Shown here piece after piece: positions 8,279 to 29,109 of a DNA stretch of 64,000 bases. The notes beneath the pieces were generated by a model. The model did no database searches, was not told the DNA's origin, and saw only the letters and a list, made by a program, of their open reading frames with translations. The stretch covers positions 1 to 64,000 of the forward strand of contig CBCXTV010000001.1 in NCBI GenBank assembly GCA_965178125.1, written 5' to 3'. Position 1 is the first letter of the stretch, and each line of letters begins with the position of its first letter. The stretch is from Bilabrum cf. latius (taxonomy: Eukaryota). Position numbers and translations under genes: made by a program.

Positions 8279-8412
8279 GGGGGGGGCGGTCGCAGAAGAG
8301 TGCACACGAAAACAAGAGGAAAGGAGACCAACCCCCCAAACCCACGTAGTGCGATCCTGGGGGGTACCCTATAAGGTACTAAGAATCCTTCTCCCGAAAA
8401 TCGCACTACCTC
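8279..8412. promoter_or_regulatory. Copy of the candidate replication-origin stem-loop of block B, flanked by 55-bp direct repeats; also ~35476-35608 and ~50185-50317
   Basis: Closely matches 24078-24207 (gtagtgcgat...atcgcactac); flanking repeats 8225-8279 and 8424-8478. Confidence 0.6.
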
Positions 8413-8789
8413 GGGCCACAACGTCTTGGTGGATTCCTCGAGGACATGGGTGGCATACCGTTGTGCATCCGTTCCCCGTCGCTCCCTAACGTCTTCAGTG
8501 GCAGGTTCGGAAAAGACACCTCCGTAGGCACGCGACAAGTCCCGGTGAAGCGGGCTCGCACCGCGCTGGGCGGGAGATCGTGAGCGCTTAGAGGACCGGA
8601 GCTTTCGGGCGGGTGCGTGTCTCGACAAACTCCCTCTTGACCACGGGCGGGGAACGTGTAGGGCGGAAGCTAAAGACACCGTAAGTAGCGGAGGGCTAAC
8701 ATTCCGTCCTTCGGTGAGAGCCAAAAGTTCGAGTCTGCGAGAGACTATTATACGAAGTTCTCCCCTCCTCATACGTGCGCATAGCCTCC

Positions 8790-9200
8790 TCACGCGGTAG
8801 CGCGAGCGCGGGACCCGGACCTGTCCCTGATGGGCGTGAATCTGAACCCGGCGTACTCTCCTAGTCTGTCACTTCCACGACCTTGTTGTCGCGGAACCAC
8901 TTGCACGGAGACGAACCTGTCGTTCAAGCGGGTGCAGCCGGACGCGCAGGTGTAGTGCATCGCCTTGCATATGTGCACGGCCAAGTAGATGCCGGAACCG
9001 TAGAGGTATCACACTTCCCGCGGAGCTTGGGTGGGTCTTTCGCTGCTGTCGTCTGCTCCAGAAGGTTTGCGCCAAAAACCGGAAAACTTCTAAGACAGAG
9101 GTGGGATGCCAGGAGCTCACGGTCCTGCCGGATTGGGGAGGTCCATGCCCACGCGAGTCGGGTACGCGTCCAAATCAACGCACAGAGCGGGAGCTGAGGG
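8790..9200 (-). pseudogene. Degraded PARP/ADP-ribosyltransferase-like fragment; also ~35986-36396 and ~50695-51105
   Basis: Minus strand 9008-8946 reads YLYGSGIYLAVHICKAMHYTC, like the PARP G-x-G-I-Y-F-A-x4-K-S-x2-Y motif; preceded by an in-frame stop; a frameshifted W-H-G-T-S-like motif lies near 9140-9155. Confidence 0.6.
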
Positions 9201-9375
9201 CGCCAAGGACGCTCACTGTCAGGCACACACAACGCGCACAGAATTCGTCATTTCGCGTTCAAAGCCTGCCAACGACGTGGCGCTTGGCGAAATGTGGTGG
9301 GTGGCGAAGATGTGGTACTTCGCCGTGCCTTTCTCTATGACGGCCAAGCGTGCATTCGCCATCGCGCTCGGACGC

Positions 9376-9527
9376 CACAGGAAGAGATCCCAGCTCGCAG
9401 CTCCGCCGCCTCATCCAGGAGTAAGGCGAAGTCGAATCGTGAATAGCGCTTCGCACCTTCACAGAGCCGAGGATCACAGATAGGCCCCGCCTCACAGAAC
9501 CCAGCGCCATAGGGCAGAGCGTGAAGT
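9376..9527 (+). pseudogene. Diverged fragment homologous to block B ~23655-23805
   Basis: ccgaggatcacagataggccccgcctcacagaa..gggcagagcgtgaagtac aligns with ccgaggattacagatagaccccgcgtcacagaa..gggcagagcgtcaagtac. Confidence 0.8.
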
Positions 9528-11245
9528 ACCTGGCCGCTTGGCTTGGCCGGACCCCCGCCCGCCCTCCGCCGGCAGCTCCTCCCGTCCGTCCCTATGGAGG
9601 CAGATCCGCGTACCCATGCTGCGGCGGGATCCTGACACAATCCGCTCCTCTTAGTGTGTGGCCGTGGGGCATGAGTGGAGCAGCATCGGGCCCTCACCAG
9701 CCGTGGAACGGAAGCAGCTCTCCGTGCGGCAGCTGTGCGATGCACAGACCTCGTCCCAAAGATACGGATCCATTTTGCCGTCTTCCCGCGCATACTGCAT
9801 CGCTCTGCAAAACTGCATTGCGCAGTGGATCCCCGAGCGTCGACTGCCAATAGCAGGCGGCCTCGCAAGGCCTTCATGGACGCAGGATTTGGGCTTCTTC
9901 ATCGTAAATTTGGGGTCTGCTCAGCGCGCGAAAATTCCAACGCTTCAAAATGATCCGGACGTCGCGAGAAGGGAACTCGTTGCTTGCTCACCTGTGCGGA
10001 GGGGTTGGATGCCCGATGTGCTAAAGAGAGGATACTGTCCGTCGGCGTTCTCTCTTCACCTTGTGCGGAAGGGTTGGGTGCCTGATTTCAGACAGAGAAG
10101 GTCTCGTCCGTTGGGAGCGCTTAGGAATACTTCCGGATGGGGCGTCCAGACGCGGTCCAGGACCTCCAGCTCGTCGGGGTCAATGTCGCCCGCGCCGTCC
10201 GTGCCTTTGACGCCTCTGGATCGATGATGCCCACGATCTTTGTCATCTCGGACGACACACGTCCCAGCTGCTCTTTGGTAGTGCATTACCTCATTGACCC
10301 CGAAGCGTTGAATATTTAATGAAGACCCTTCGGAAGCTGGCGAAGTTTGTCAGCTTGTCGGAGCGCAGCCTGGGTCCTTGTCAACAAACATGGAGGGTTT
10401 CGGGGCGGATTTCCAGCGTTCCGCCTTGATATCGAGTGCACCTCGAGGTCGGGATCGAAGCGGGGCGGGCGGTTCGTCATCCTCTGTGATACGCTTAGGA
10501 GGCGCCGACTTGATGCCCACCTTGTCCCCCAATCACTCCAGACGTAACTGGGGAACTCTTCCCGTCGTGGGCCGGGTACGCCTCCGAATCCCACGCGAGC
10601 CGTTCCCCACGGCGCACCGATAAGCGCCGCTGCAAGCGTACCAAGAGGGGCGTACCAAGAGGTGCTTCCTTCGCTCGGCAGTGTGGCACTTCAAGCAGTA
10701 GAATGTGCCACTCCCAGCACGTAGGTGGAGTTTGCGAGCTGCCGGCCGACATGCTCGTGTGGTGACCTCCGGCGCACCGATAAGTGCCGCTGCAAGCGCA
10801 CCAATACTACTTCGCTTGGGAGCGAGGCACTTTAAGCAATGCAGTGCGCCGGTTTTCGTGCACGCCCAGTCGCGCGGACGCCGCAGGTGGCTTGGCCGTA
10901 GGATAGAATTAGTGGCGGGTCGGTTTTGCATGTCTTCCCTCTCCTCTTGATATGGTACACAAAGGCAAGAGCCTGACGATGCAGACGGAACTCCTGGATT
11001 TCACCGCCACATTCCTAGTCAAGACAGCCCTCGACTAAACAGACGCCGAGTTATCTTGAGCAGCATCCCACGACGCAGTGATGTGGACGGCAAGGGTGAT
11101 GCCATGCTTTCCGGGCCTCCCATGTGACCGCTTTTTGCGTACCGAAACACTTTCCGGGGTCGACGCCCCGGCGGAACACGCCGGCGCGGCGGCAAGCGTC
11201 GATGTTGCGGGCGGCCCAGCCATGAGGTACATGATCAAGTACACG

Positions 11246-12029
11246 GAAAGCACGCAGAGCGTCGTCAATCCGTTCGTGAGCCGCGAGTTCCAAAAGGTCT
11301 TCGAGACATCCGCCCGGAAAGCACGCAGAGCATCGTCAATCCGTTCGTGAGCCGCGAGTTCCAGAAGGTCTTCGAGCACATCCCCCCGGAAAGCACGCAG
11401 AGCATCGTCAATCCGTTCGTGAGCCGCGAATTCCAGAAGGTCTTCGAGCACATCCCCCCGGAAAGCACGCAGAGCATCGTCAATCCGTTCGTGAGCCGCG
11501 AATTCCAAAAGGTCTTCGAGCACATCCCCCGGATGATGTCGAGCATGCGGACGCCCTGCTCCGGATGATGTCGGCCATGCGGACGCTCTTCCCAGACCTT
11601 GCGCGGCAGCGGGACGAAAATGGAGCTCTCCCTGCACCGCAAGCACGCCGGAAACCTGGTGCACTTCCACGTGTGCATGACGGACTCCGAGAGGTCGCAT
11701 CGTTGTCGCGTGGCGGAGGATTTCATTTGGGCCGGCAGCAGGCCGAATGTCGTGTACGGCTTTAAGGTACCGAACCGGAACTCCCGGCAGCAGCGCAGGC
11801 GGAGACATCCGCCCGGAAAGCACGCAGAGCATCGTCAATCCGTTCGTGAGCCGCGAGTTCCAGAAGGTCTTCGAGCACATCCCCCCGGAAAGCACGCAGA
11901 GCATCGTCAATCCGTTCGTGAGCCGCGAATTCCAGAAGGTCTTCGAGCACATCCCCCCGGAAAGCACGCAGAGCATCGTCAATCCGTTCGTGAGCCGCGA
12001 ATTCCAAAAGGTCTTCGAGCACATCCCCC
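11246..12029 (+). repeat. 72-bp tandem repeat (4 + 3 copies) of a glycosyltransferase-gene segment, inside a 499-bp duplication
   Basis: The unit encodes ESTQSIVNPFVSREFQKVFEHIPP (source ~21852-21920: ESTQCIVDPFVSRQCQKVFEHIPS). The 499-bp duplicate is absent in copy 2 (38443-38727) and present in copy 3 (53151-53934). Confidence 0.93.
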
Positions 12030-12977
12030 GGATGATGTCGAGCATGCGGACGCCCTGCTCCGGATGATGTCGGCCATGCGGACGCTCTTCCCAGACCTTG
12101 CGCGGCAGCGGGACGAAAATGGAGCTCTCCCTGCACCGCAAGCACGCCGGAAACCTGGTGCACTTCCACGTGTGCATGACGGACTCCGAGAGGTCGCATC
12201 GTTGTCGCGTGGCGGAGGATTTCATTTGGGCCGGCAGCAGGCCGAATGTCGTGTACGGCTTTAAGGTACCGAACCGGAGCTCCCGGCAGCAGCGCAGGCG
12301 GCATGCTTGGGGCGGCACGTGGATCTTCGACGACGCCATTACGCTCAGCGATTGCGGGTCGAGGGTGCAGATCGACGCGCCGCAGTCGAAGGTCTTGGCG
12401 ATGGTAATGCCCCGGAAGTCGGGCCAGTGGATTCCTCATAGGCTGCGCTCGCGTACGATCTGGTATTTGGGTGGGGAGCAGTCGGCCGTGATCACCAACC
12501 TCAAGTGCCAGGCCTGCCCCGGAAGTCGGGCCAGGGCATTCTCCGAGTCTCTTTGCCGATGATGTCTGAGGAGAAACCGTCCGAGAGCATTGCTGTTTCC
12601 TTGGGAGACGGCCGCAATCTTCGTGGGCGTCAAGGCGCCGGTAATATGGGAAACGAGGGCGGCATGTTGGCGCGCGAGGTCGACGCCCCGGCGGAGGGGG
12701 GGGGCCGTACGTGCCGTGACAGGTCGCGCCGGAGCCGGCGGAGGAGGCGACATGGACTTGCAACGCGTGCCAGGGCCTAAGCCCCGGTCAGAGTACTTCA
12801 AGAAGTGGAAGGACTGGATCCAACCAGTTTGCCGGGTGTGTTACGACAAGTTCGACAGCGCGACGCCGTGGTGGGTGAGGTGCAAGAACTGCAAAAACGA
12901 GTTTCCGGCGTACCGATTTCCCCAGATCCGCCGGAAGAGGGACGGGCCTCGATCTCGGAAAGGGCGGGAGTCCGTTC

Positions 12978-14300
12978 TTGCATTCGGAATGGGCGGGGAG
13001 TTGCTTTTCCTGGGAGCATGTGCGAGATTCCTTCTCCGCGGGTCCTCTTTCGGCTTCGGCAGTCAGCAGCGCACTCTGCGGGAACGGCATTCTCCGAGTC
13101 TCTTTGCCGATGATGTCTGAGGAGAAACCGTCTGAAAGCATTGCTGTTTCCTTGGGAGACGGCCGCAATCTTCGTGGGCGTCGAGGCGCCGGTGATATGG
13201 GAAACGAGGGCGGCATGTTGGCGCGCGAGGTCGACGCGCCGGCGGAGCACGCCGGCGCGGCGGCAAGCGTCGATGATTCGGGCGGCCCCCACATCGAGAG
13301 CGGCGGCGCGGAGGCGGCGTCCACGGGGATGCTCGGAGAGGAGAGCGGCAAGGCAGCGCCGAAGGAGGACGCCGAAGACGACGGCGGCAAGAAGACGGAG
13401 GAGGAGGATGCTCGCGGCGGTGGACGTGCTGTGGTGCCCGGAGGTAATGACGACGTATGGACCGACGCAGCAGCTTGGAAGGCGGGTGGCGGCGTGGCAG
13501 CCGGGGCGGTCTCTGGCGCTGATAGCTGGGCTCTATGGGGGACCCCTGCGAAGTCGTCATGGGGGGAGACGTACGTGCCGCGGCAGGTCGCGTCGGAGCC
13601 GGCGGAGGAGGCGACATGGACTTGCAACGCGTGCCAGTGCTGCAAGCCCCGGTCGGCGTACTTCAAGAAGTGGAAGGACTGGATCCAACCAGTTTGCCGG
13701 GTGTGTTGCGACAAGTTCGACAACGCGACGCCGTGGTGGGTGTGGTGCAAGAACTGCAAAAACGAGTATCCGGCGTACCGATTTCCCCAGATCCGCCGGA
13801 AGAAGGAGAACTTGCGCTATTTCTTCCCTGAGGACTGGTGCGCGAAGTGCCTGGTTGCGCGTGGCTGGAGTCTCCATGATGTCCGTTCCTCTGCGGGTGA
13901 AGCGAAGCGTTGGGTGCCAAAAGCTGGCGCGAATACCGGTGACGGCGACAACGACGCTCGTGCTCCCGCACGCGACGAGCTTCCTGCAGGAGGCGCCGCC
14001 TCCTGCAGCAACGCCGTGCGTCAGAGTTCTTCGCGTGACGAGGCCTTGGATGACATCAACCGGGCCATGGAGCTTCTCCGGAATGCGGAGAAATTCATCT
14101 CCGCGATGCCATCGTGCATGCAGTGTGCGGTGCAGGACCAGTTGATGCAGGGCATCGTCAAAGACCAGGCCCTCTTGGATATCTTCTCCGGCAAGATAAC
14201 GGACTGGATCAAATACCATCCGGCCACTCTTGGGGCGATCCAATCCTATCGAAACGCATGGCTGTGGGCCGACGGAATGGCTCATGGTTGTCGAGGATGA
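12978..14300 (+). CDS. Chimeric ORF: near-complete ZnF1 fused in frame to ZnF2 and glycosyltransferase fragments
   Basis: 440 aa: ZnF1 sequence, then CMQCAVQDQLMQG (ZnF2), then IVKDQALLDIFSGKITDW (glycosyltransferase). Confidence 0.45.
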   Translation: MHSEWAGSCFSWEHVRDSFSAGPLSASAVSSALCGNGILRVSLPMMSEEKPSESIAVSLGDGRNLRGRRGAGDMGNEGGMLAREVDAPAEHAGAAASVDDSGGPHIESGGAEAASTGMLGEESGKAAPKEDAEDDGGKKTEEEDARGGGRAVVPGGNDDVWTDAAAWKAGGGVAAGAVSGADSWALWGTPAKSSWGETYVPRQVASEPAEEATWTCNACQCCKPRSAYFKKWKDWIQPVCRVCCDKFDNATPWWVWCKNCKNEYPAYRFPQIRRKKENLRYFFPEDWCAKCLVARGWSLHDVRSSAGEAKRWVPKAGANTGDGDNDARAPARDELPAGGAASCSNAVRQSSSRDEALDDINRAMELLRNAEKFISAMPSCMQCAVQDQLMQGIVKDQALLDIFSGKITDWIKYHPATLGAIQSYRNAWLWADGMAHGCRG

Positions 14301-17300
14301 TATCGAACCTCGCGAAGCATGCGTGGATCGGCTACTCGTAGTTCTTCACGCCATCGCGAAACCCCAAGGTGACGCAGATGGCCATGTTAGCGGGGTCAGA
14401 AGCACCGAGAATGGTCAGCCTCCAGCGCGGAAACTCACCTCATGCACAACTGCGAGCGCCTCTTGGACGTGCGGACCTATCCGGCGCACTGGGTAGACAA
14501 CACATTTGTGGTCCCCTTCCACGTGGGCATGGGCCTAAAGTGGTATCTCATCAGCCCGGAGGGGAGGAAGGCGCTCCTGAAGATGCGGATCCCGAACCGA
14601 AGCTTCGAACGCTGCGTCTGGCGCCGCATCTTCGACACGTTCCAAGGGCCGGTATGTAATGTCCGTCGTGATGTCCGTGTGCGCGGCCCTGAGTTGGGGG
14701 GTTGTCTCGTCTGGGAAAAAACAGAGCGCGTGCCCATCTCCTACGAAGACTTGTGCGGTGTTCACGAGCACGCCGGCGAAACCTCGAGTTTTGGCATCAA
14801 GATCGTGTCGCGGCCAGGCTGTACGACGGCGGCAAGAAGACGGAGAAGGAGGATGCTCACGGTATCGCCCTGATCATCTGCACGACTTCGTGGGGCTCCA
14901 TGACGTAACGGCGAGCGAGAACATTGACTGGTGGCGTGGCTGGAGGATCTCGGGAACACACGGCGGGCGAGCCGTTTTTCAAAAGGAGCACGGGTCCTTC
15001 GGGACGCCATTTCACTTACGGCGGGCGAGCCGTTTTCCGAATGGTGCGGGGGTCCTACTGATGCACACGGCGATCGCTGGTTCACTCACGGCGGGCGAGC
15101 CGTTTTCCGAATGGTGCGGAGTCCTCCAGATGACCACGGTGATGGGTGGCAGCATGTCATAGGCGCGCCGTCGGAAGCTTCCCCTTCGAGTGCTGCCTAA
15201 AACTGAGAAACCTGGAGATCCTAGCATCGTATGGAGGCAAGAGGTAACACCTTGGGGTCCGTTCTCCGCTTCAATTCCTGTCCCAAATCCGATTCCCATT
15301 TCGAGACCGAAAAAGGTGACCCGGAAAACGACGGTACTTATTTCTGAACCGTTTTCCGGACGCTTTCCGGGTCTCCCATGTGACCGCTTTTTGCGTACCG
15401 AAACACGTTCCGCGCGTGAGGAGCAGATGCGGATCTCCGCGGGGTCCTATTTGTGTCTTTTTTCGGGGACGAAATCGGGCGCACTTCTCGTGCCGATTTG
15501 TGGTCGTCTCTGAAACCGGCTGCGAGTCGGGAAAGGTGCCCGAGATGCTTGTGTCCTTGGCTTCGTATTTCTCCGCATATTCTTCAAACGCGGGCGGCAG
15601 TGGCTCCTGCGCGGGAGCTTCCCGAGTGGGTCCGTCGTGCAGTGCGCTGGGTAGGTCCGCAGGTCAAGGAGGCGCTCGCAGTTATAGACGTAGGTGGAGT
15701 TTGCGAGCTGCCGGCCGACATGCTCATGTGGTGACCGGAGGTCACCACATGAGCATGTCGGCCGGCAGCTCGCAAACCCCACCTGCGTCTATAACTGCGA
15801 ACGCCTCCTTGACCTGCGGACCTACCCAGCGCACTGAGCAGACAACGCATTTGTGGTCCCCCTCCACGTCGGCATGGGCTTGAAGTGGTACCTCAGGAGG
15901 ATTTCACTTGCGCCGGCCCCCAGGATTTCGCCAAAAATGGCCGATCCGCACAAGGAATTTAAGTTGCGGCGACACAGCTCGGACCCTGGCTTTTTTTTGG
16001 CTGTTTCGGGGCCCCAAGAGGGCTCCCGGCCCCAAAAAGGGCAAAACGCGAGGTTGTGGTGGAAAAAATGGGCCCCAAGGAGTCTCCAAACGACGCAAAA
16101 CGCCACGTTGTGGTGGATTTTAGAGCCCCTAAATCGCCCAAAAAAGACGCAAAACGCCACGTGGTGGTGGATTTTAGAGCCCCTAAATCGCCAAAAAAGA
16201 CGCAAAACGCCACGTTGTAGTGGATTTTAGAGCCCCTAAATCGCCCAAAAAAGACGCAAAACGCCACGTTGTGGTGTTTTTTTTGAGCGTTTTCGGGGGG
16301 CTCGGAAGGGGACCCCCCCAGGATTTGGCCAAAAATGGCCGATCCACACAAGGACTTTAAGTTGCGGCGACACAGTTCGGGCCCCGGTTTGTTTTTGCGG
16401 TTTGGGGGCCCCGAGAGGGCTCCCGGCCCCAAAAAGGGCAAAACGCGAGGTTGTGGTGGAAAAATGGGCCCCAGGCAGCCCCAAACGACGCAACACGCCA
16501 CGTTGTGGTGGATTTTAGAGCCCTAAATCGCCCAAAAAAGACGCAAAACGCCACGTTGTCGTGGATTTTAGAGCCCTAAATCGCCCCAAAGAGACGCAAA
16601 ACGCCACGTTGTAGTGGATTTTAGAGCCCCTAAACCGCCCTAAAAAGACGCCAAACGCCACGTTGTGGTGTTTTTTTTGAGCGTTTTGGGGGGGCCCGGA
16701 AGGGGACCCCCCCAGGATTTGGCCCAAAATGGCCGATCCACACAAGGAATTTAAGTTGCGGCGACACAGTTCGGGCCCCGGGGTTTGTTTTGCTGTTTGG
16801 GGGCCCCAAGAGGGCTCCCGGGAGGCCCTAGAGTGGCCCTTCTCCGCTTCAATTCCTGTCCCAAATCCGATTCCCATTTCGAGACCGAAAAAGGTGACCC
16901 GGAAAACGACGGTACTCTCCGTCACTCCATCTGGCGGCGAAAATTGCCTCAGTTTCCGGTCCCCGATTCCGGGCCCAGGGACCCCCGAAATTCCCGATTC
17001 CGCGCAGTGCCGAAAGCTCGACATAAACCACAAACACGACACACAACACAACACGATAGCGCCTCCCCACGCGCGGGATTGGGTCCTTCCGCTCGCTGCA
17101 TGTGAGCTGCAGTGTGTTCTTGCCGGGAATGTCACTGGAAGTCGCGCTGCAGTCTGCTCAGGGCGCCTTATGACCATGAAGGCGTCTCAGCACCCGCGAC
17201 GGCAAGAGGGGGCACGCACGACGTTGCGAAGCACCCGCCCTGGGTGAAGAAACTGCGTATCCACAGGAGTCACGTTCAGGTGCGCGAGAATTGGAAAGGC

Positions 17301-19640
17301 GGGGTAACTGGTGCAGAGGAGCTTGTTCGCAGCGCGGCTTCCACCAGCGCCGCTGACGGTAAGATGCATCGGTCTCGGTACATGAGTCGGCACGGTGTTG
17401 CGTGATTGACTTCACGATGCGGGAGTGTGCAGCCTTCCGCAGCGGGAGAATTGTATCTCCCCACGACCGCCGAAAAAAAAAAGAAGGCTATGCTGGACTC
17501 GTTCCAGGGAAGGCTATGCGATGAGTATCTCTAGGCGCTTTCCGGAAGACCCACCCACTACACGCTGGTCAGCCCTCCCAAGCGGGAGTGAACCGCGGAT
17601 CCGCGGGCCCGTGAGCGCTGCTGCTACGATCATTTCTGCCCGTTTGACTCTCGCCCACTCTTGCCGTGACCAAAGACGCGCAGATCCTTATGACGCATGA
17701 CACCTCGTCGAGGTGTCGAGACTGCCTCACATTCCCGTTACAAAGACCCACAGCACTGCGACAACGAAATCGGTCACGAAGAGAGCAAGAGGCCGCGCAC
17801 CTGAGCATCACAAAAACCCCGAGAGACATAAACAACACCGTCCCGTGAAGTCCCTGCGACGAGGGGATGCTAAGCGGCTCCCACGGCGGCTCCTCTGCGG
17901 GAAAAGCTGCCGCAGACCTCGAGATGGGATGCACATGACTGCGAAGATTGCGGAACTCGTCCGAAGCCGGTCGCACGAGGGTCACAGCGAATGGAGGCAT
18001 ATCTATGAAATAGAGTCTGCGTGCAAAGCAGCATTCCAACGATCGTCCGCATTCTTCCGAGCAAATCCTTGGGAGCACACATCCTGCGGACGACATCTCT
18101 TTTCTATCCACCCCAGCGTACTCCCCGCACACACTTCTCGCGAATGATTGAGAATTCTGTGCGGCACATGTAATATCAGGCTACCATGATACGCGGAATG
18201 GCGTGCTATTGCTCGCACGTTCGTGCGCCCCCTTCCGAATGCGCTTACCACATCACTATGTTCGTCGGCAACCGTATACACCGTAGGGGTCTTCCCTCCG
18301 ACACCAAGCGTACACGACTGGCCGTAATAGCGCAGCGTAGATGTTTCGGACGTCGCCCAGGACAAGTGTCGACGCCCGGTTCGTCACGATCACTACGTGT
18401 GCACTTCACTCACCGCCCTCCAGCCGCTAGACTTCTTTTGGAGCGCGACATCCTACGACGCGCTATGACACGTAGCCGTAAACCGCAGACGGCCTCGCGT
18501 TCACTGCTTGCAGCGCAAGAGCGTGAACAAGAACCGCCCGCGTGGCACACCTTCGCAGGCGCGGAAGACAAAAAGTTCCTTCTAAGCTTGTATTCGGGTC
18601 CGAAAGCCAAATTCCACTTCGGGGTCGAGAAGGGCGACCCGGGAAATCACCGTACGCTCTGTGAATCCATTTCCCGGGGAAAGTCCCCGAGTTCCCGCTA
18701 CCCGGTCCCAGGCCCAGCGACCCAGGAAAGTTCCCGTCCCCCCGCATGCGGAAACCTCCCACGAAGCACGCCCACCTCACGCTTCACACGCAAAAGTCCA
18801 GGAGTCAAATCCATTCCGGACCCAGCAGTTCACCCCCCGTGACGATTGGGAAAGGCTCTTGCACACACCTTCTCGTCCGAGCAGTCTATGGAGCACACAC
18901 CTGTCTTCGTTGCCTTTTCCGGCCAAAAATGCAGGGAGTTCGAAGGGGAAGTAGCAAGCGCGGAAGACCGCTTTCGAAACGCAGGTGCTCAGGGAAAAAC
19001 AACCAGAGCGTCCCTGATCCTCGGCAGAGCCGTCCAGGAGGGACGGGCACGGACGGGCATCGCAGATCTTGCAGCGCCACCATTCGCCGGGATGGGCGAC
19101 CGGACGAGGGCGACCACAAGTACGTAGCGTGCGACGTCCGTCAGTCGCCATGTTGCGCTGATTCGCTTTCGCGGCACGACTTCCAGGGCCGGCCTTACTC
19201 ACTCCTCGGAGTCCGCGTGTGGATTCTCCCCTGCGCATGATCTGCCGCTCTAGATGCTACACAAAGATCCCGCTCGGATGACCCCCTCTGTGCATTCTGC
19301 AAGATTTTACGCGCCTCCATTCAATGCGCGAAGCATGCACCGCAGCAGTCTGAGTCCGGTGACCACCTTCAATAGCGTGGGACAAATTCCGTCCGCGATG
19401 TGCATTCGGGCATGCTCCCCTTTCCGAGTCTCTGTGACCCGTAGTGCGTCCGCGGCCAACGACTCAGGACTCCACGATGGTACGCACGAGTTGCATTCCT
19501 TGCACGAAGCGTGCGGAGAGAAAGCGATGCTCAGACATCGAGGCGCTTGGAGGGTCTGCACGCGACATGCTTCGAGAGGCCATGCAAACATGCGAAACCA
19601 GAACTGAGGTTCCTCATCGTTCCTGCTGTCGAGCGCTCAA

Positions 19641-22373
19641 TTGGGGCATCGGATCAGGACGAAGCTCGCGAAGAGAGGGCGCGGGTGTCCCCATCCAAAA
19701 ATCCGCCGCCTTCAAGGCTCATGTTCCCGGATCCTGCATTCGCGAGTTTCGGGAGCAGAAGTGCAAGATCGCCGCTGGACACACAGCGCATGCCATTTCC
19801 CGTCTCTGGAGATGTCGGGCTTCCAGGCGCAATTCGGACACCATCGCCAGGACCTCGGGAAGATGACATGTCTGCTGATCTGCAGGGAAGAGTCCCGCTT
19901 CGAGGAGTGGCGACAAAAAAAAGGGGCGCGAGAACTCCACGAGCACATGGGAGCGGTCCTTCGGCTCCCCAATCCAGTGTTTCCGCAGACCGACAGGGAC
20001 CCAGATGGACGCGACATCGTCAAAGACCAGGCCCTCTTGGATATCTTCTCCGGCAAGATAACGGACTGGAGCAAATACAATCCGGCCACTGTTGGGGCGA
20101 TCCAATCCCATCGAAACGCATGGCTGTGGGCTGAGAACCACACGCCGACGGAATGGCTCATGGTTGTCGAAGATGATATCGAACCTCGCGAAGCATGCGT
20201 GGATCGGCTACTCGTAGTTCTTCACGCCATCGCGAAAAACCCCAAGGTGACGCAGATGGCCATGTTAGCGGGGTCAGAAGCACCGAGAATGGTCACCCTC
20301 CAGCGCGAAAACTCCACCTCCATCCACAATTGCGAGCGCCTCTTGGACGTGCGGACCTATCCGGCGCACTGGGTAGACAACACATTTGTGGTCCCCTACC
20401 ACGTCGGCATGGGCCTAAAGTGGTATCTCATCAGCCCGGAGGGGAGGAAGGCGCTCCTGAAGATGCGGATCCCGAACCGAAGCTTCGAACGCTGCGTCTG
20501 GCGCCGCCTCTTCGACACGTTCCAAGGGCCGGTATGGAAGTGGGGAGATTGCCTCCGCATGACATCTGTGCTGGCAGCCAGCCCGGTCCTCGCATCGACT
20601 CCCGAGAGCATGGACACGGAGTGGGGGGGCTCGGGACGACGAAGTGCGGATGCAGGGCACAGTATGAAACCGTACATAATGGTCGACCCGAGTGACGACT
20701 GGACTCTTGGCGAGCGATTAAACACATTGTCCGTCGTGATGTCCGTGTGCGCGGCCCTGAGTTGGGGGGTTGTCCTCGTCTGGGAAAAAACAGAGCGCGT
20801 GCCCATCTCCTACGAAGACTTGTGCGGTGTTCACGAGCACGCCGGCGAAACCAACACGTTCGTCCACCTCCTCCAGGACAAACGCGGCGGGTCGTATTCG
20901 TACTTCCTGAGGTACGGAGACATCCGCATCCACGTGGTGCAGCCGATGATGTGCATCCCCACCCTCGACAGAATGCTCGACATGGTAGCCCTGAAGAGGC
21001 CCAAGATGAACACCCTGCCTCCCTTGAAATGGCAGACCGCTCGATGGATCCAAGTCAAGCAGAAGTGGATCGATAAACTCCACACGGAGATGCCGGGGGC
21101 CGAGCTGCCCTCATGGCTGGAGTGGCCACCCTCAACCCACGCGCTTGTCCTCTGCGACGACAGGGACTTGGCGGCGCACTGCCTCGAGGGGAGATGCCAA
21201 AAGGAGCAGCAGGAGTGGATGAACGACGGGAAGGACAACAGCATCCAGCACTACATCCTTGAGGCAAAGCAAGCGCTGCAGAACGAGTTGGAAGACATCC
21301 TAAAGGGGGACAGCAGCTCACGCCTCGTCGTGATCCGCATGACAACCAAACTGCTGGGACAGGTCTGGGTGGACATGATGAAGCACCTCACGAAGCAGTT
21401 CGGGAAGCGCATCATAACGCCAACGTTCCTCCTCCCGAAAATGATCCCCAAAAGGAGGCACGACGAAAAGAACCCGAGTGATGATTGGATTACTTGGGGA
21501 GCATCCTTGGCGAAAACCGTGGGCCTCCTCACGCTCATACCTCCGATGCAAGTGCACTATCCCATCATGAGCTGGACCGTGGCCTGGAACCACTTCATGT
21601 TTAAGGGCAGGACTGCCACGGACACCGTGATCCCAGACGTCATCCGAACTCTGTACGCTCCGCACAAGAGCAACAGGAAGCAGCTCCTCAAGAACGGCCC
21701 GCTGTGCCAGACGAGGCGCGCCGTGCTGGACTCGCCCGCACTGCGGGACATTGCGAACAACTACTCAAGGGCCAAGGACAAGACCTATAACCTCTTGAGT
21801 TATTCCAAATGGTTTGCCGAAGAAGCCATGTGGCACATGATCAAGTACGCGGAAAGCACGCAGTGCATCGTCGACCCGTTCGTGAGCCGCCAGTGCCAAA
21901 AGGTCTTCGAGCACATCCCCTCGGACGACATCGGCCATGCGGACGCCCGGCTCCGGTACAACCTTCAGGATGCCGACGACCGAGGTTACCGCTTCAACGC
22001 GGGGCATCTCTACACCGCGGTGCAGGGCATCAAAACGGTGAACATCGCATACAACAAGTGGCTCACCGAGCAGGCACAGAGTCATTCCGAATGGAGCTGG
22101 GGCAAAACGTTCATCAAGCTTGTGATCAACCAGTGGCGGCAGCAGCAGGGCAGTGAGCCGTATGACGTGGACGAGGAGGAGTACGTGAGCCTTCCGCGGA
22201 CCTTCCACGGGAATTCGTTGAAGCTCGCGAGGAGCGTAAGCCTCCAGGACACGAGATCCTGCTCCAGATCGTCCTCATCCTATTCCAGGTCGCCCTCCAC
22301 CAACAGGACTGAGGCACAGCCTTCGAAGAGAGCGCGCCTGACCCCGGCACCCGGCGTAAAGCACGAGCCCTGA
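19641..22373 (+). CDS. Large glycosyltransferase-like protein: GT25-like N-terminal domain plus a fucosyltransferase-like domain; likely start ATG 19812 or 19863
   Basis: GAIQSHRNAW, LMVVEDD and YLISPEGRKALL match GT25 motifs (GCxxSHxxxW, xEDD, YxIsxxGAxxLL). LGERLNTLSVVMSVCAALSWGVVLVW resembles the GLGNR start of GT-B fucosyltransferases. Confidence 0.72.
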   Translation: MGHRIRTKLAKRGRGCPHPKIRRLQGSCSRILHSRVSGAEVQDRRWTHSACHFPSLEMSGFQAQFGHHRQDLGKMTCLLICREESRFEEWRQKKGARELHEHMGAVLRLPNPVFPQTDRDPDGRDIVKDQALLDIFSGKITDWSKYNPATVGAIQSHRNAWLWAENHTPTEWLMVVEDDIEPREACVDRLLVVLHAIAKNPKVTQMAMLAGSEAPRMVTLQRENSTSIHNCERLLDVRTYPAHWVDNTFVVPYHVGMGLKWYLISPEGRKALLKMRIPNRSFERCVWRRLFDTFQGPVWKWGDCLRMTSVLAASPVLASTPESMDTEWGGSGRRSADAGHSMKPYIMVDPSDDWTLGERLNTLSVVMSVCAALSWGVVLVWEKTERVPISYEDLCGVHEHAGETNTFVHLLQDKRGGSYSYFLRYGDIRIHVVQPMMCIPTLDRMLDMVALKRPKMNTLPPLKWQTARWIQVKQKWIDKLHTEMPGAELPSWLEWPPSTHALVLCDDRDLAAHCLEGRCQKEQQEWMNDGKDNSIQHYILEAKQALQNELEDILKGDSSSRLVVIRMTTKLLGQVWVDMMKHLTKQFGKRIITPTFLLPKMIPKRRHDEKNPSDDWITWGASLAKTVGLLTLIPPMQVHYPIMSWTVAWNHFMFKGRTATDTVIPDVIRTLYAPHKSNRKQLLKNGPLCQTRRAVLDSPALRDIANNYSRAKDKTYNLLSYSKWFAEEAMWHMIKYAESTQCIVDPFVSRQCQKVFEHIPSDDIGHADARLRYNLQDADDRGYRFNAGHLYTAVQGIKTVNIAYNKWLTEQAQSHSEWSWGKTFIKLVINQWRQQQGSEPYDVDEEEYVSLPRTFHGNSLKLARSVSLQDTRSCSRSSSSYSRSPSTNRTEAQPSKRARLTPAPGVKHEP

Positions 22374-23247
22374 CGACGAAATGCCGCAGAACAGCGCGTT
22401 GCGGGGAGACAAAGCTCCGCGGGCAACAGCAGAAGGCCGCCGAGCGCCGGAGTTGGAGGGTCACATAGTTCCATCGGTCCCATTCTCTCCGGAAGTCGCA
22501 TAGCACGTAGAGATCCGCATGCTCTCGGTGCATGAACGCTGGCAGCACGCAGTGCCAAAGTCGCAAAGCGCTTCAGAGTCACAAGTCCAGAAGTTCTTCT
22601 GCCAATGTGTGTCCTCTTCCCGCTCATGTGTGCATCCTCGGAGGAAGTCTGGAGATGACAGGACCCAGCACGCACCACATCAGAAGTCCTTTTTTAAAGC
22701 GGCATCGTCAGACAAAAATCTGGAACGCCCTTCCGCAAAAAAGAGTGCTGCCCACAGAAAAAAGGGAAACACCTGAGGCCCCAGAAGCCAAAGGGAGGAC
22801 CGCGAAGGACGCAGTTTCGAGGTCACACTTTCCGGGACCAGTTTTGAGCCCAAAAAGGGGTACACAAGAGGAAAACACGATGCGGGAGGCTTGAAATTGT
22901 CACCGAAAACGGGCCCAAAATTGGGACCCCTTTTTCGCAAATTTCGCAGCATCCAGACGACCCAGAAAGGCTTTCCCAGGCGCCGCCTCGAAGCTCACCT
23001 TCTCGCATGCAACCATGACGCAGCCCCACCTCCTCATGCAGACGCGTCTGAGAGACCCCGCAGTGGAACTTCTCCCATTCTGCGCAGGAAGCACTTCAGT
23101 CTACAAGGACCCGCGCACTTCTTACCGCACCACCTCCATGTGAAAGCACTTCTCGCGGAGTTTTTTTCGGGCCCAGGAATACAGCAACTGCCAGAAGCTT
23201 CGCACAGAAAAGCAGCCCACTCAGGAAGCAAACTCACTGCACACCCC

Positions 23248-23718
23248 ATGGCGAGCGACGCAGAACCGGAGGACGCAATGCGGCTCGACTCCCCTAGAGA
23301 TGCGGATGCAGCGGCGCCACCCGAAGCGACGGAGGCAGGATCACAGAAACCAGATCATGCGCAGCAGTTCTTCGAGGAGCCCTGCCCGAAAGACGGACAC
23401 ATGGAAGCGCCAGAGAAGACCGCCAAGACGGACGAACCTGGCGACACACCCTTGTTCGTCGACAAGTGGACGGCAGCGATCACACGCCTTACCGAGGAGC
23501 GCAAGGCTCTCAAGCTCGAGCAGCGGGCTAAAACGAAGGCCATCCGCAAAACCATCCGGCAGAAAAGGCGCACCATGAAGAACGCCAAAAAACTCACAGA
23601 CGACGAGCTCGCCCAAATCGTGCTAGACAGGAAGATCTTGCAGTTGGTGCAAAAAGAAGAGATCGCAGCACGCAGCTCCGCCAACTCCTCAACGAGCCAG
23701 GCGAAGTCGACCTTGTGA
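23248..23718 (+). CDS. Small protein with an acidic N-terminus and a Lys/Arg-rich coiled-coil C-terminus (frame open from 22891)
   Basis: MASDAEPEDA...RLTEERKALKLEQRAKTKAIRKTIRQKRRTMKNAKKLTDDEL; a diverged homolog of its 3' end lies at ~9376. Confidence 0.55.
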   Translation: MASDAEPEDAMRLDSPRDADAAAPPEATEAGSQKPDHAQQFFEEPCPKDGHMEAPEKTAKTDEPGDTPLFVDKWTAAITRLTEERKALKLEQRAKTKAIRKTIRQKRRTMKNAKKLTDDELAQIVLDRKILQLVQKEEIAARSSANSSTSQAKSTL

Positions 23719-24077
23719 GAAGCGCTTCCCGTGTTCAGAGAACCGAGGATTACAGATAGACCCCGCGTCACAGAAGCCATCGCAAGAGGGCAGAGCGTCA
23801 AGTACAGCGCAGTCTTGACGGACACAGATAGCCCGAGCAGCACAAAGCAGCGGATGCGGCTGCCCAGCGGAGTCGCGCACTCGGACAGCATACACGGGAC
23901 GTGCTGGCAGAAATCACTCAGTCCGCGAGCACCGTCGTCAAGAGCACGGGAGGGGCAGACTCGACATGCACAACTTTGAAAAACGGGAGGGCACGAAAGG
24001 AAGACAAATTTGGCATTAATCCTTGATTACCCCCGCCCCCCCGTAGAATCAGAGCGAGGAGATATGCTCGGAAGGTC

Positions 24078-24384
24078 CGGGGGGCAGTCGCAGAAAAGTG
24101 CACGCGAAAATAAGAGGAAAGGAGACCCCCCAAACCCACGTAGTGCGATCCTGGGTGGTACCCTCTAAGGTACTAAGAATCCTTCCCCCGAAAATCGCAC
24201 TACATCGGTCCCTGGCGTCGGGGAAAGCGGAAAAAAGGGGAGCACTACCGTGAAAAAATCCTGCATTTTACAGGAAAATCGGAGCACTACGTGTCAAAAA
24301 CTGGGGGTTTTTGAGGTTTTTTTTCCAGAAAAACGGCATTTTTTTATGTAAAAACCGCGCGAAACGAGCACTACCGAGCACTAC
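24078..24384. promoter_or_regulatory. Candidate rolling-circle origin: inverted repeat plus GCACTAC iterons upstream of rep
   Basis: gtagtgcgat (24140-24149) / atcgcactac (24194-24203); gcactac at 24197, 24242, 24284, 24368 and 24378; A/T tracts between them. Confidence 0.6.
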
Positions 24385-24892
24385 ATCGCCTCCTCCAGTC
24401 GTGTTTCGCATTTTTTTCGCTGGCCGAAAATGTCTCCGAAGGCGCTGCCTCGAGGGGGGGTTCCGATGGCTGATTTTGGGCGTTCTGTTGTCGATTTCGC
24501 GTGCATTTCAGGTTGTCGGCGAGGCCTTTTTGGCGTATGTCGCAGTTCGGATGCCCTCGAACGTCGTGTCTCATGTGGTATTCGCCGGTTTCTATGTTGG
24601 AGAAGGCGGTCGGTCGATCATCCTCTCTGGCAGGCTCCGAAGTGCGTTTGTGATCGTGCTAATTGCAACGCCATGCTTTCCTTCGTTGGCTTCGAGAATC
24701 CTTCCCTCGGAAGCGGTAGTACCTCGCCCAGGGCGGCACGAGCTGCAGACTCAGCTGCCTCGGTGCTCATGTGTGTCCCGTGTCAGCAGTTTCGGTGTTA
24801 CGAACAGCAAGGATTCTGGGCATTGCGTGTCGGAGGCAAGTGTTCTATCTTGAGGCATTCCGCGATTCGTCGAAGGATTATTTGCGCAAATA

Positions 24893-27178
24893 ATGTCGGC
24901 TCCGTTCAAGGGCGAAACGATGAGTTTGTCTGTTGCCGAGTCGCTGAAGTCCCGAGTCGCATCCTGCTCCTGGGATCCCGCGTGGGTTTCCGCGAGCTGC
25001 GTGCCGTGCGATGGCCTCCCCACAAGCCAGGAGTCAGAAGCGTCCACGACGGCGACCTCTGCTTTGTTAGGGGTGTCCGAGGCGTCCCCAACGTGCTCGT
25101 GTGGCCTCGGTGTCTCCAATTCGGTGGCTGCAGCGCGCGCGGCCGCTGTCCCGAGTTTTGGCTTTGACGATGCGGAGAACGACTTCGACGCCAGTCTCGA
25201 CATGATTGAGGCCTCATGCGAGGTCGCATGCGAGGCAGAATGCGAGGGCGATCCGGGAGCCTGCTTGTTGTCCCACGGCAAGTCGAGCGGTCAGTGGCAG
25301 ATCGGCGTAGTGGGTGAACGAGTCCTTTATGAGGGCCTCAGCGTTGAGGGCGACATTCCTGGCCGCGTTGCTGCCTCCGAAGCGCTCGCCGCGGGTGTCA
25401 TCAATTTGGAACCCCCGTCAGAGGAAGTACTTTTGCCGGTGCAGCTTCTGCGGAGTAGTCAAGGTTACCGTGGGGTTCTGCCCATCGAGGATTCTGCGCC
25501 CGATGCGAGGGGGCGACCGCAGATGCTCATGCTCCCCGATTTCGTGCCCCGCGTGAAGAGGCGGCGTCTTCGGCAGAAGTGCGACCCTGCTGAGGGCGAT
25601 GCAGCACCGAGTCTTGCGGCTCATCTCGGACCTCCGCCCGCGGCTCGTGCCGCGGCCGGAGCGTCTGGGCCGCAGCGCTCGACTGGAAGGCCTTCGACTC
25701 GTCCTATTGATAGTGTCATCTATCGTCTCCTGCGGGTTTTCCCTGACGATTTCAAGTTGGCGTTTCCGGCGTCGGTGTCACACCAGCGGAAGCGGTGCCT
25801 CATCAGGGAGGCGCTTCGCAATGTACCCGGTGACCGCATGTGCATCTTGAAAGACTGGGCTGCGGGGGCGGAGGACACTCCTTGCCAGCTTCGTTTCGAG
25901 GAGCTCTTCCCGGAGCTTGCGCGGCAGCGGGACGAAGTTGTGAGGAATCCGGGATCGCACTCAGTGCCCGTGGGCGAGATTGTGCCTGCGTCCGACAAGA
26001 ACACGAGGCGGGGAAGGGCCGTGATGCTTACCTTTCACGGTCGCTGGGGTGTCGAAAAGGAGCCTGTGCGCGACATCATGTCGGCATCCGTGGCAAGGGG
26101 CGTCCTGAGGCGATTGGTTCTCGCGTCTCCGTTCTATGTGGAGCTTTGGGCCACCTTCAAGGCATGGGCGCAGGACATCGCGCGGCGGATGATGTGGCCT
26201 CAGCTGTCCATGAAAATGGAGCTCTCCCTGCACCGCAAGCACGCCGCAAACTTGGTGCACTTCCACGTATGCATGACGGATTCCGAGAAGTCGCATCGTT
26301 GTCGCGTGGCGGAGGATTTCATGTGGGCCGGCAGCAGGCCGAATGTCGTCTACGGCTCCGGGCGGTCAGCGAAGGCGCAGGAACGTGGCGCGTCGGAGTT
26401 ACACTATTATTGTCAAGCTCCCAAAGTCGGTGCGCTGCTTTGCGCCACGAACTACCGAGCCGGACGCGATTTCGTCGTCAATGGTAAGTTCGTGCACGCG
26501 TTGTTCGCACGCTTCAAAATGGATCCGGACGTCGCGAGAAGGGAACTCGTGGCGTATCGGTGTCGGGACGCCGAGAACTTAGTGCGCGCCATCGACTTCC
26601 ACATACAGAATACCGCGGAGAGGAGAGAGGTGTGCGCGCAGGCCGCGGTGCACGTAGTGACGAAGCTCCGCCCCTTTAAGGTGGTGCCCGAAGTCGAGAA
26701 GTGGCGCGAGAGCTATCGTCAGGAGTGGTTCGCGCACATGCGCTTCAAGTTCCTTGTCTTGGTGGGGGACTCCCGGTTCGGGAAGACAGTGTACGCGCGG
26801 AATCTCTTCGGGAGCGAAAGGACTCTTGTTGTGAACTGTCAGGGCAGTGTGGAACCTCCGCTCCGTGGCTTCGATCGAAGTCGGCATGTGGCCATTGTGT
26901 TCGACGAGGCAAATGCCCTGTGGGTCGTCAACAACAAACAGGTCTTTCAGGCTGGCCTTGACCCCTCCCTGCTCGGCCAGAGCAAGACGAACAGCCTCGC
27001 ATACTCTGTGTGGCTCCACGGTATCGCCCTGATCATCTGCACGAATTCGTGGGGCTCTGACGTGACGGAGTCGGCGGACCGCGATTGGCTTGACAACAAC
27101 TGCACGAAAGTGGAGGTGAAAGATCGGCTCTACTTCGACGAGGACTTGTTGTCTCTCACGGATGTGCAGAAGAGCTGA
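24893..27178 (+). CDS. rep: CRESS/geminivirus-like replication initiator (HUH endonuclease + SF3 helicase) with a long N-terminal extension
   Basis: Motif I VMLTF (~26021), motif II VHFHVC (~26255), motif III-like YYCQAPK (~26405), Walker A GDSRFGKT (~26765), Walker B IVFDE, motif C IICTN. Confidence 0.92.
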   Translation: MSAPFKGETMSLSVAESLKSRVASCSWDPAWVSASCVPCDGLPTSQESEASTTATSALLGVSEASPTCSCGLGVSNSVAAARAAAVPSFGFDDAENDFDASLDMIEASCEVACEAECEGDPGACLLSHGKSSGQWQIGVVGERVLYEGLSVEGDIPGRVAASEALAAGVINLEPPSEEVLLPVQLLRSSQGYRGVLPIEDSAPDARGRPQMLMLPDFVPRVKRRRLRQKCDPAEGDAAPSLAAHLGPPPAARAAAGASGPQRSTGRPSTRPIDSVIYRLLRVFPDDFKLAFPASVSHQRKRCLIREALRNVPGDRMCILKDWAAGAEDTPCQLRFEELFPELARQRDEVVRNPGSHSVPVGEIVPASDKNTRRGRAVMLTFHGRWGVEKEPVRDIMSASVARGVLRRLVLASPFYVELWATFKAWAQDIARRMMWPQLSMKMELSLHRKHAANLVHFHVCMTDSEKSHRCRVAEDFMWAGSRPNVVYGSGRSAKAQERGASELHYYCQAPKVGALLCATNYRAGRDFVVNGKFVHALFARFKMDPDVARRELVAYRCRDAENLVRAIDFHIQNTAERREVCAQAAVHVVTKLRPFKVVPEVEKWRESYRQEWFAHMRFKFLVLVGDSRFGKTVYARNLFGSERTLVVNCQGSVEPPLRGFDRSRHVAIVFDEANALWVVNNKQVFQAGLDPSLLGQSKTNSLAYSVWLHGIALIICTNSWGSDVTESADRDWLDNNCTKVEVKDRLYFDEDLLSLTDVQKS

Positions 27179-27582
27179 CGCCGGCCGCTGAGGTTTTCAG
27201 TCCGGTTCACACGAGCGCCGGAGCCGCAGCGGCAGCCGCTTCGGTGCTCCTGAAGGTCTAATGTCCTCAATGCGTTTCGTGTGCAAAAAGGATGTGGTTT
27301 CTACATGGGGGCATTCCGCAAGTTTCATGTGGTCCGTCGCGTTCGTCCGGGGGAGTGCTTGCCTAGTATTGGGAGCTTGCCTGACACACACACACGTGGC
27401 ACCCAGCCTGATGGGTTGCAAGTGTGTGTGTGTCTCCGCAGTGCCGCGGTTGGGACCCGGCGGGTCGTTTGCTTTTACGTCGCCGCGTCGCGCGCCGACG
27501 AGACATTTCTTGGTCTCAGAAGCCTCTGCTTCCGGTAGGCGCGCCGTGTACACTCGCGGGCCGAAGGTGGGTGCGTTGCTTG

Positions 27583-28275
27583 ATGGCCTACGTCGGTATC
27601 GCCGATGCACCGTATGTGCCCGTGGTTGCCGCGTCGACCTCCGAGCACGCCCCGGAGGGCGAGGTGGAGATGATGCTTGCGCCTCTTGCCGGAGATGTCG
27701 GTTTCAAGCGGCCTCGCGTGTTTCCTCCCGGTTCGCGACTTCTTCCTAAGTCGCCGGCCCATCCGGCGGTGCTCATAACAGCGCTCGGCAGTGAGGCACC
27801 CCAGGACACACAGTGCGTCGTTTGGTCGGACTCTAAGGCTTTCGACCTCGCGGAGTTTGTATGCTCTTCCTGCGGCTGCAATCGTGTCATGGCGGACCTG
27901 AATCATCGTATGCGTGATCGTCTCGTACGTCGCGTGCAGCGCACGCTTTATGCCGATGATTCTCCGTGCGGCAGGGGTGCGATTTCGTGTCGTGCTTGTC
28001 GCGAGAAGGCGCGCGACGCGGCGCCGAAGACGTCGATTATGAACGCGGCGAACAAGAAGAAGATCTCGGGAACTCTTCGCATGCAGTTGGATCTCATTGT
28101 AGAGACCGGGGAGCGGAAGGGTCAGCGTTGTACTGCGGAGAAAATTCTGACATTGGGAACGATGAAGCAGCACAGGGTTTTCGAGAGGGACCTTTACGAT
28201 GAGGCATGGCGCGGGCTTGTTCGTCTGTCTGGACGCGAGGCTTGGAGCGATGACGACTCGTGGTCTCCGCGTTGA
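27583..28275 (+). CDS. Cys-containing hypothetical protein (frame open from 27424)
   Basis: ATG 27583 MAYVGIADAP...; CSSCGC and CRAC pairs; directly downstream of rep on the same strand. Confidence 0.55.
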   Translation: MAYVGIADAPYVPVVAASTSEHAPEGEVEMMLAPLAGDVGFKRPRVFPPGSRLLPKSPAHPAVLITALGSEAPQDTQCVVWSDSKAFDLAEFVCSSCGCNRVMADLNHRMRDRLVRRVQRTLYADDSPCGRGAISCRACREKARDAAPKTSIMNAANKKKISGTLRMQLDLIVETGERKGQRCTAEKILTLGTMKQHRVFERDLYDEAWRGLVRLSGREAWSDDDSWSPR

Positions 28276-28475
28276 GCTTGCGTGACGGTTTTCCCTCTTA
28301 ACCTGGCCTCTTGCGTGGCGCTGCTTCCGCGTGTGGCCTGAGCGTGCGACCTGAGCGTTCGGCCTGCTGTCGCGTGTGACCTGAGCGAACGGGCGCTCGA
28401 CAGTATCCCGCGTTTGTTGCTTCTGGGGTTCAAGAAACTTGTACTTTTTGGGCTGTACGGTGGTCAGTGGTGCAC

Positions 28476-28608
28476 GGTTCGTTCGCAGCCTCCGCGTTGT
28501 TGGAAAGCTATGGTGGAGCATGGTTCTTTTCGCAGCCTCCGCGTTGTGATCAAGCTACGGTGGAGCATGGTTCGTGAGCATGGTTCTTTTCGCAGCCTCC
28601 GCGTTGTT
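28476..28608. repeat. Three imperfect ~47-57-bp direct repeats near the right end of B
   Basis: ttcgcagcctccgcgttgt occurs three times, with (aagcta.ggtg)gagcatggttc between copies. Confidence 0.85.
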
Positions 28609-29109
28609 GACACGTGAAAGCTACGCGAACGTGACCACACAATAGGCCATACCCCAGGTGAAATCCGGACTCGGACATCCAGACGAAACGGCATCATGCA
28701 CACTGTTGAACACACAAATGACACTGAGCTCCACCGTAACGTAACTTTCCATCACCACCTGGTTTATTTTCTCCGCGATGGCAGCTTGGCGGTGACGCTG
28801 TGTCTTCGGGCATGAAGGGGCAAATCTTTGATTTTTTGGGCCCTGTTTCGGTCACCGAAAAGTCGTGTGATTTCTGGCGCGCAGGAGGAGTGACGCAAGG
28901 TATTTCTGAACCGTTTTCCGGACGCTTTCCGGGCCTCCCATGTGACCGCTTTTTGCGTACCGAAACACGTTCCGCGCGTGAGGAGCAGATGCGGATCTCC
29001 GCGGGGTCCTAGTTGTGTCCTTTTTCGGGGGACGAAATCGGGCGCACTTGTCGTGCCGATTCGTGGTCGTCTCTGAGACCGGCTGCGAGTCGGGAAAGGT
29101 GCCCGGGAG

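Follow-up and report, generated by a model that had tools for sequence, protein, structure and literature searches.

A Rep-bearing module with TA-flanked inverted ends and excision-type TA-CT-TA scars in a tandem array from Bilabrum cf. latius

How can a module of 12 kb be present between some copies of a repeat and absent between others, when the copies are otherwise almost identical? The question is raised by contig CBCXTV010000001.1 of Bilabrum cf. latius (assembly GCA_965178125.1), of which the first 64,000 nucleotides (nt) were analysed and are here called the window. Blocks A and B repeat head to tail through the whole window, every 41,909 nt and with a G+C content of about 60%; from left to right they follow one another as A-end, A, B, A, A, B. 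Block B carries a gene for a rolling-circle replication protein (Rep) and lies between two TA dinucleotides. Where it is lacking, the flanking blocks A meet at TA-CT-TA, that is, TA, the first two nt of B and TA again. An earlier note on this DNA had proposed that a transposase encoded in A excised B, and its coordinates, TA positions, strings and length of B were all correct on recheck. From the sequence, excision by the transposase, probably repeated, appears to us to be the likelier origin of TA-CT-TA, with a confidence somewhat better than even. The feature is real and the footprint credible, and both belong to a family joining a Rep to a pogo-like transposase that is apparently undescribed.

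The ends of B are imperfect inverted repeats over about 62 bp, which confirms the earlier note (its count of 18 matches in 24 positions was checked by eye). They align in register from the TA, with 11 of the first 14 nt identical and a second block from +38 to +62, and they share a 9-mer whose exact occurrence is confined to the B ends. With 15, the score of the 62-nt pair lies well above the mean of -16.2 (standard deviation 4.9, z about 6.4), and not one of 40,000 sampled TA-TA pairs attains it. Among all 117,530 TA-TA pairs it ranks fourth, the top three coming from an already mapped inverted duplication, and when only 30 nt are compared it ranks third, with one chance pair above it. The ends of B are genuine but degenerate and weak terminal inverted repeats (TIRs). 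A motif of the TTT(C)CGG type, expected about 0.06 times per 70 nt, is found on all four arms around the two TAs, always directed away from the TA, and is reminiscent of the subterminal binding motifs of pogo-like elements (PMC1636448).

The left junction also has an old direct paralog inside B, identical at 53 of the 75 nt to the left of the TA and at about two thirds of the aligned bases to the right. Since this paralog spans the TA in register, it is likely that B either settled long ago at its site or that the left junction is a functional module. A recent insertion of B was rejected on the same observation.

TA-CT-TA occurs at 123, 1700, 15335, 42032, 43607 and 57240, and the earlier note took these for six empty sites. 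The six positions stand, but they reduce to two distinct sites, and six independent excisions were consequently rejected. One site is the true joint between two blocks A, at 1700 and 43607, where the flanks equal those of the filled site exactly over 228–603 nt on the left and 561–674 nt on the right. The other is a copy of an empty junction captured inside A, of which the occurrences at 123, 42032 and 57240 are tandem copies; its exact identity with the main site extends over only 77 nt to the left and 33 nt to the right. The captured scar is present in all A copies and about 4% diverged, while the main site is filled or empty between copies that are 99.9% alike. From this we infer that the same outcome was probably reached at least twice, once in the older captured scar and once in the recent A/A joint. 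Homogenisation or conversion could mimic two separate events.

On the left the break behind the scar lies 2 nt inside B, and on the right it coincides with the boundary between B and the TA; microhomology is absent from the joint. Enzymes of the Tc1/mariner type make a flush cut in the transferred strand and cut its partner 2–3 nt inside the element. A 2-nt staggered cut of this type gives breaks at +2 on the left and at B/TA on the right, and hence TA-CT-TA exactly. Footprints of 2–4 bp are described for Tc1/mariner elements (PMC7913693) and of 0–4 bp for the pogo element Passer (PMC9976928), and TA is the target of the pogo group (PMC7325037). In the reading that we favour, the ends of B are old, degenerate transposase ends, the transposase cut the top strand 2 nt inside the left end and flush at the right end, and repair then joined the flanks into TA-CT-TA. 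The array itself may have grown by Rep-driven rolling-circle replication or by unequal exchange. B is in this reading a long-standing part of the unit and no fresh insertion, and its independent mobility finds no support in the joints inspected.

The enzyme that could make such cuts is encoded in block A (Table 1). Its DDE_1 domain is matched by Pfam at E 2e-11, the catalytic triad D233/D358/D394 is invariant in five relatives, and its neighbours in the protein atlas are DDE_1/pogo clusters. No transposase was found in B by sequence comparison within the window. A DDE_1 triad, inverted ends, although weak, and a short footprint of terminal bases are all found at this locus, as in the pogo group. 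An autonomous pogo element has its transposase between the TIRs, whereas here the DDE gene is in A, outside the ends of B; B resembles a non-autonomous pogo-type element in its action and fails as an autonomous one. The description of a transposase outside its cargo holds in so far as B has no DDE gene, but the locus is better read as a single composite element that a pair of internal ends divides.

Table 1. Positions of the features discussed, numbered along the 64,000-nt window
Feature	Position	Strand	Remark
Left TA	16913..16914	+	string check
Right TA, start of next A	28901..28902	+	string check
Left end of B, imperfect inverted repeat, ~62 bp	16915..16976	+	end alignment
Right end of B, imperfect inverted repeat, ~62 bp	28839..28900	-	end alignment
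Block B, Rep-bearing module between two TAs	16915..28900	+	11,986 bp
Block A, first full copy	1704..16916	+	15.2 kb
Block A, other copies	28901-43610 and 43611-58820	+	99.8-99.97% identical
Second filled left junction (TA at 58817) and start of second B (from 58819)	58817..64000	+	leaves window at its end
TA-CT-TA, true A/A joint	1700..1705	+	flank comparison
TA-CT-TA, true A/A joint, repeat of 1700 at ~41.9-kb period	43607..43612	+	flank comparison
Captured copy of empty junction in A	15259..15596	+	338 bp, 96% identical; scar 15335-15340
Old direct paralog of left junction, ~70%	18572..18790	+	nhmmer E 4e-19; spans TA in register, paralog TA at 18653
Hairpin, 5 bp, 6-nt loop with left TA and scar break point	16908..16923	+	weak lead only
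pogo-like DDE_1 transposase, 545 aa, DD35D	5368..7005; also 32564-34201, 47273-48910	+	open in all three copies
Rep of 761 aa; N-terminus of low complexity, HUH domain (HFH, YY..K), SF3 helicase	24893..27178	+	motifs, model, fold match
Open reading frame of 910 aa with glycosyltransferase-like region	19641..22373	+	lead only
Cys-rich open reading frame after Rep	27424..28275	+	kept at same position in a relative
Scrambled region of A	11106..15895	+	~20 mostly co-oriented A/B gene fragments; 4,323 of 4,790 nt covered

The protein encoded in B is, judged by its motifs and predicted structure, a Rep with HUH and SF3-helicase domains. A search with its C-terminal 432 amino acids (aa) found 1,358 relatives among 50%-identity clusters at E <= 0.001, and the H-x-H, Y..K and Walker A and B motifs are invariant. 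The structure model has a predicted local distance difference test (pLDDT) value of 91, and its best fold matches are Rep68 of adeno-associated virus (AAV) 2 (E 1e-7) and the Rep of a vientovirus (E 2e-6). The placement came from the fold search alone; a sequence search of the PDB gave no true match. Pfam had no match for the Rep, nor for 25 relatives, save three sub-threshold matches on one protein.

The two genes appear to travel together in related sequences. The named relatives are from Symbiodinium only, where gene models of Symbiodinium sp. CCMP2592, in the region CAE7287604-CAE7287652, fuse a 41%-identical Rep to a related DDE protein (26%, E 7e-23). The order in one of these models is Rep, part DDE, Rep, DDE; three family members are recorded on contigs of one size, 75,309 nt, which together suggests tandem copies in Symbiodinium as well. 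Among 19 metagenome loci with a Rep, three (L002, L013 and L014) have a DDE gene on the Rep strand at a distance of up to about 3 kb; these include both loci longer than 10 kb, and the other 16, which are shorter (1.2–5.2 kb), show no DDE. Relatives of the Rep (52%) and of the DDE (50%) both occur on a contig of 14,535 nt, and the A transposase and a B gene of this very element on one of 25,927 nt, the sharing being deduced in both cases from equal size. The identity matrices of Rep and DDE, compared over six pairs, have a Pearson correlation of 0.76 (13 of 720 permutations). Because Rep stands beside transposase in relatives, A+B is best read as one composite mobile unit of about 27 kb belonging to a large family, probably one of dinoflagellates. 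We found no paper on a dinoflagellate element with Rep and DDE genes in a search that left Repbase, Dfam, subscription journals and supplements outside.

Public sequencing runs give a view beyond the window. At least half of the sampled query words, almost all of them from B, are contained in 10 of the 22 listed runs. RNA data sets with the sequence were absent from the list, which is no measure of expression. Four runs were compared as contigs (X1, X4, X10 and X12), a form that drops rare variants, and the inspection covers 15 of 102 joints, with the other 87 joints and 2,736 loose ends outside this view. The joint 16916->28901 is present in X1, X4 and X10, which come from three studies. A second joint, 16915->28904, is found in one X1 contig at a depth of 265 and retains one base of B; the size of this contig is that expected for a single-TA allele that differs in one base, which is a hint only. 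Neither joint is in X12 (share 0.36, patchy cover). In both X4 and X10 a contig of 596 nt, starting 29–30 nt ahead of the branch, crosses the left TA unbroken.

The very small contig sets X3, X6 and X8 (153–186 million letters) contain 77–79% of the sampled words, and the stretch is present, whole or in part, under nine organism labels. Such a pattern would fit an element of high copy number in a symbiont that several hosts share.

Several of these observations weigh against excision by the transposase. The ends of B are only about 65% alike and start CTC/CCT, whereas active pogo elements have near-perfect TIRs starting CAG. The paralog across the left TA is a feature that an arbitrary target site would not need. 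TA stands on both sides of B, but the inspected joints contained no single-TA empty allele, no TA-GG-TA scar, no B circle joint and no second flank or other insertion of B, all of which the earlier note had proposed to look for in long reads. The graph structure in X4 and X10 suggests that the left end of B has no second abundant flank there. The median depth of A relative to B, calculated from four A-only and ten B-only bins of our own choice and not to be taken as copy number, is 0.81, 0.90 and 1.02 in X1, X4 and X10, as compared to 2 in the window, and the joint in these three runs may be the captured copy only. Among the relatives, the element ends were not found in L002 or L013 (a CTC-rich start of L002 was not counted), and the Spearman version of the matrix comparison is weak (0.35, 61 of 720), with one pair resting on equal contig sizes.

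Could the scar be the work of the Rep instead? The left junction would then be its origin: the HUH domain would nick the hairpin loop past its fourth base, and the free 3' end would be joined to a secondary site where A starts; B would be released or skipped, and the scar would be a rolling-circle termination joint. The 5-bp stem straddles the left TA and the scar break falls inside the loop, the junction module is conserved across the TA, and the old paralog holds a similar stem, in which one pair is compensatory, one has been gained and one has been lost. The HUH and SF3 motifs of the Rep are intact, and rolling-circle replication would explain the head-to-tail arrays. Stems of at least 5 bp are nevertheless found at 22 of 381 TA sites and the folding z is only -1.0, so that the hairpin is unremarkable and was rejected as significant by itself; of the stem-loop origin with a nonanucleotide that marks CRESS-like replicons, only this stem was observed, and it is no more than expected by chance. 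The right junction has no hairpin, and a second break flush with the inverted copy of the left end is left unexplained. We hold an origin in the Rep to be unlikely. It is also rather unlikely that a single ancient excision by the transposase left the captured scar, from which the A/A joints were later templated by gene conversion, or that the assembler wrote these joints along the path of 77 + 33 nt shared between the two sites. Such a history would suit the captured copy in every A, the exact identity with the main site around it, the near-equal depth of A and B in three runs and the 25,927-nt contigs, which fit an AB unit. It requires two exchanges, within 77 and 33 nt; one exchange predicts a 1.6-kb repeat, which is not present. 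The A/A joint moreover stands twice at the 41.9-kb period in copies with distinct substitutions, which looks like the product of long reads.

The end-to-end joining of A, which the earlier note gave as its alternative, still has a place but is the weaker explanation. Here A, or the whole of B+A arranged head to tail, would have ends of its own, and the A ends would be ligated with two bases of B as a spacer. The transposase is in A, relatives carry Rep and DDE in one module, the TTT(C)CGG-type motif points away from the TA on all four arms, and the ends of A have a 10-bp inverted core in common. That core is all they share: it is about 5 nt out of register and the ends score -13 over 75 nt, nor was any TA-flanked inverted pair found around the transposase (best scores 4 and 9), and we regard this joining as distinctly improbable. 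A single deletion, random or through microhomology, that tandem duplication then multiplied must be considered very improbable indeed; in its microhomology form it was the fallback of the earlier note. A does contain about 20 other scrambled joints, and the distinct empty sites are only two. A joint that lacks microhomology speaks against it, and microhomology deletion was rejected for that reason; each break is no more than 2 nt away from an inverted end (chance about 1e-6), and the chance that a random joint meets both ends within 3 nt is about 1.5e-6, the 22 scrambled joints allowed for. Deletion through the 4-bp direct repeat at the ends of B predicts a single TA, unlike the observed scar. 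Excision by the transposase is therefore retained as plausible, with an intact DD35D enzyme, fitting breaks and no microhomology on its side; the earlier note overstated the number of events and the mobility of B, for which no second flank was seen among the inspected joints.

The two B starts in the window differ by four substitutions across 5,182 nt. B contains two further reading frames of some interest. The 910-aa frame is a lead only, with a glycosyltransferase likeness scored 0.90, a PHROG match at E 0.001 and, as nearest atlas clusters, GT25/GT11 proteins, several of them from Nucleocytoviricota. The Cys-rich frame has a counterpart of 58% aa identity at 790-1533 of locus L001, whose DNA is 70% identical over 1.57 kb. 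No capsid gene was recognised by Pfam (40 reading frames) or PHROGs (8 reading frames), and a collection of viral contigs contained no relatives of the Rep or of the transposase and no exact match to a 20-mer from the left end of B or from the end of A. In prokaryote genomes one 1.9-kb contig (L020) matched, probably a contaminant. A search with the motif of the dinoflagellate spliced leader found no relic of it.

The scrambled region of A consists of pieces of 30–1,170 bp that are 83–99% identical to their sources, pieces of the Rep gene from B included, and it is repeated in each A. Several of its joints are also present in the public runs at about 1–3 times the base depth. Template switching, during gap repair or rolling-circle replication, may have given rise to the mosaic. 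It contains a near-perfect palindrome of 197 bp (15640-15836, with arms of 97 nt and a loop of 3 nt) that comes from the glycosyltransferase-like gene, and a 500-bp duplication at 11303-12301 that is found in two A copies and not in copy 28901-43610; the depth in run X4 suggests three copies. Nested tandem repeats with periods of about 398, 107 and 54 nt stand directly before the end of A (15917-16821). Outside the scrambled region, A and B share older paralogies of 81–95% (8281-8425 with 24079-24219, 9371-9539 with 23646-23815, and 9898-9985 with 26471-26555) in an order unlike that of B itself, and a decayed copy of the surroundings of Rep may be present in A.

Among the relatives, L002 and L013 have apparent introns or inserts rich in self-complementary GGGCCC/CCCAAA (5990-6220 and 3890-4120, respectively) at a similar position in the transposase. 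The window transposase is without this insert, and a similar stretch is found in B at 22780-22940, ahead of a coiled-coil reading frame. L002, which encodes relatives of both Rep and DDE, also has a 9-nt microsatellite and arrays of about 280-nt and 48-nt repeats (3260-4360, 9240-10540 and 11120-12033).

What would it mean if the two enzymes act on the same unit? The TA-CT-TA footprint alone is ordinary Tc1/mariner biology, and the one eukaryotic case known to us of a rolling-circle Rep-helicase combined with a cut-and-paste transposase is fungal and decayed. In the present unit the two genes are intact, the linkage is recurrent, and ends and cut are visible, giving a defined substrate for enzyme tests. 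It is conceivable, though doubtful, that the element represents an undescribed and widespread class with a dual mechanism, in which the Rep multiplies the unit, as arrays or as circles, and the pogo-like transposase frees the 12-kb Rep module at a fixed pair of internal ends. The transposable form would then be B, or any B...B stretch including A, and each TA-CT-TA joint would be the trace of a change, made again and again, between units that replicate and units that lack the Rep. Dinoflagellate genomes typically show tandem amplification and shuffled fragments, and such an element may offer a mechanism for both.

The architecture of HUH and SF3 domains is common to the Rep of B, to the DNA viruses of the CRESS type (circular and single-stranded, with an encoded Rep) and pCRESS plasmids, and to parvoviral Rep proteins. 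The identity to AAV Rep68 and vientovirus Rep is 10–12%, and the unit here is 27 kb long with no capsid gene recognised. Helitrons likewise use a rolling-circle Rep-helicase, and they too are known for fragment capture and tandem arrays. They have a Y2 Rep with an SF1B helicase (PMC10288648) and no TIR or TA structure; the helicase here is SF3-like, not SF1B, and membership among the Helitrons was rejected. Replitrons are also eukaryotic mobile elements with a CRESS-related HUH endonuclease, but they are without a helicase and have short direct terminal repeats, whereas this unit has an SF3 helicase, a DDE transposase and inverted ends (PMC10288648); with the helicase present, membership was rejected here as well. 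With pogo elements of the DD35D type, such as Passer and Lemi1, the locus shares the DDE_1 domain, the TA flanks, short footprints, and end and subterminal motifs (PMC9976928, PMC1636448, PMC7325037). It differs from them in its 12-kb cargo with a Rep, ends of about 65% likeness, a transposase that is not between the ends and the lack of dispersed insertions in the sequences inspected.

The closest precedent, by analogy, is the geminivirus-like TIR transposon of the truffle Tuber melanosporum. It carries a Rep-like open reading frame and two transposase frames between 37-bp TIRs, with no obvious target-site duplication; the frames are interrupted, the 42 copies are interspersed, and all genes are inside the TIRs (PMC3198968). 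In the Bilabrum unit, by comparison, the genes are intact and joined by cargo reading frames, the flanks are TA, the scar is of the excision type, the copies stand in tandem arrays, the transposase lies outside the inverted pair, and the Rep is matched by no Pfam model. The 9-nt microsatellite of L002 recalls the microsatellite of the truffle element. What the two have in common is a likeness of design only: a CRESS-type Rep and a transposase joined in one repeated unit with TIRs in a eukaryotic genome.

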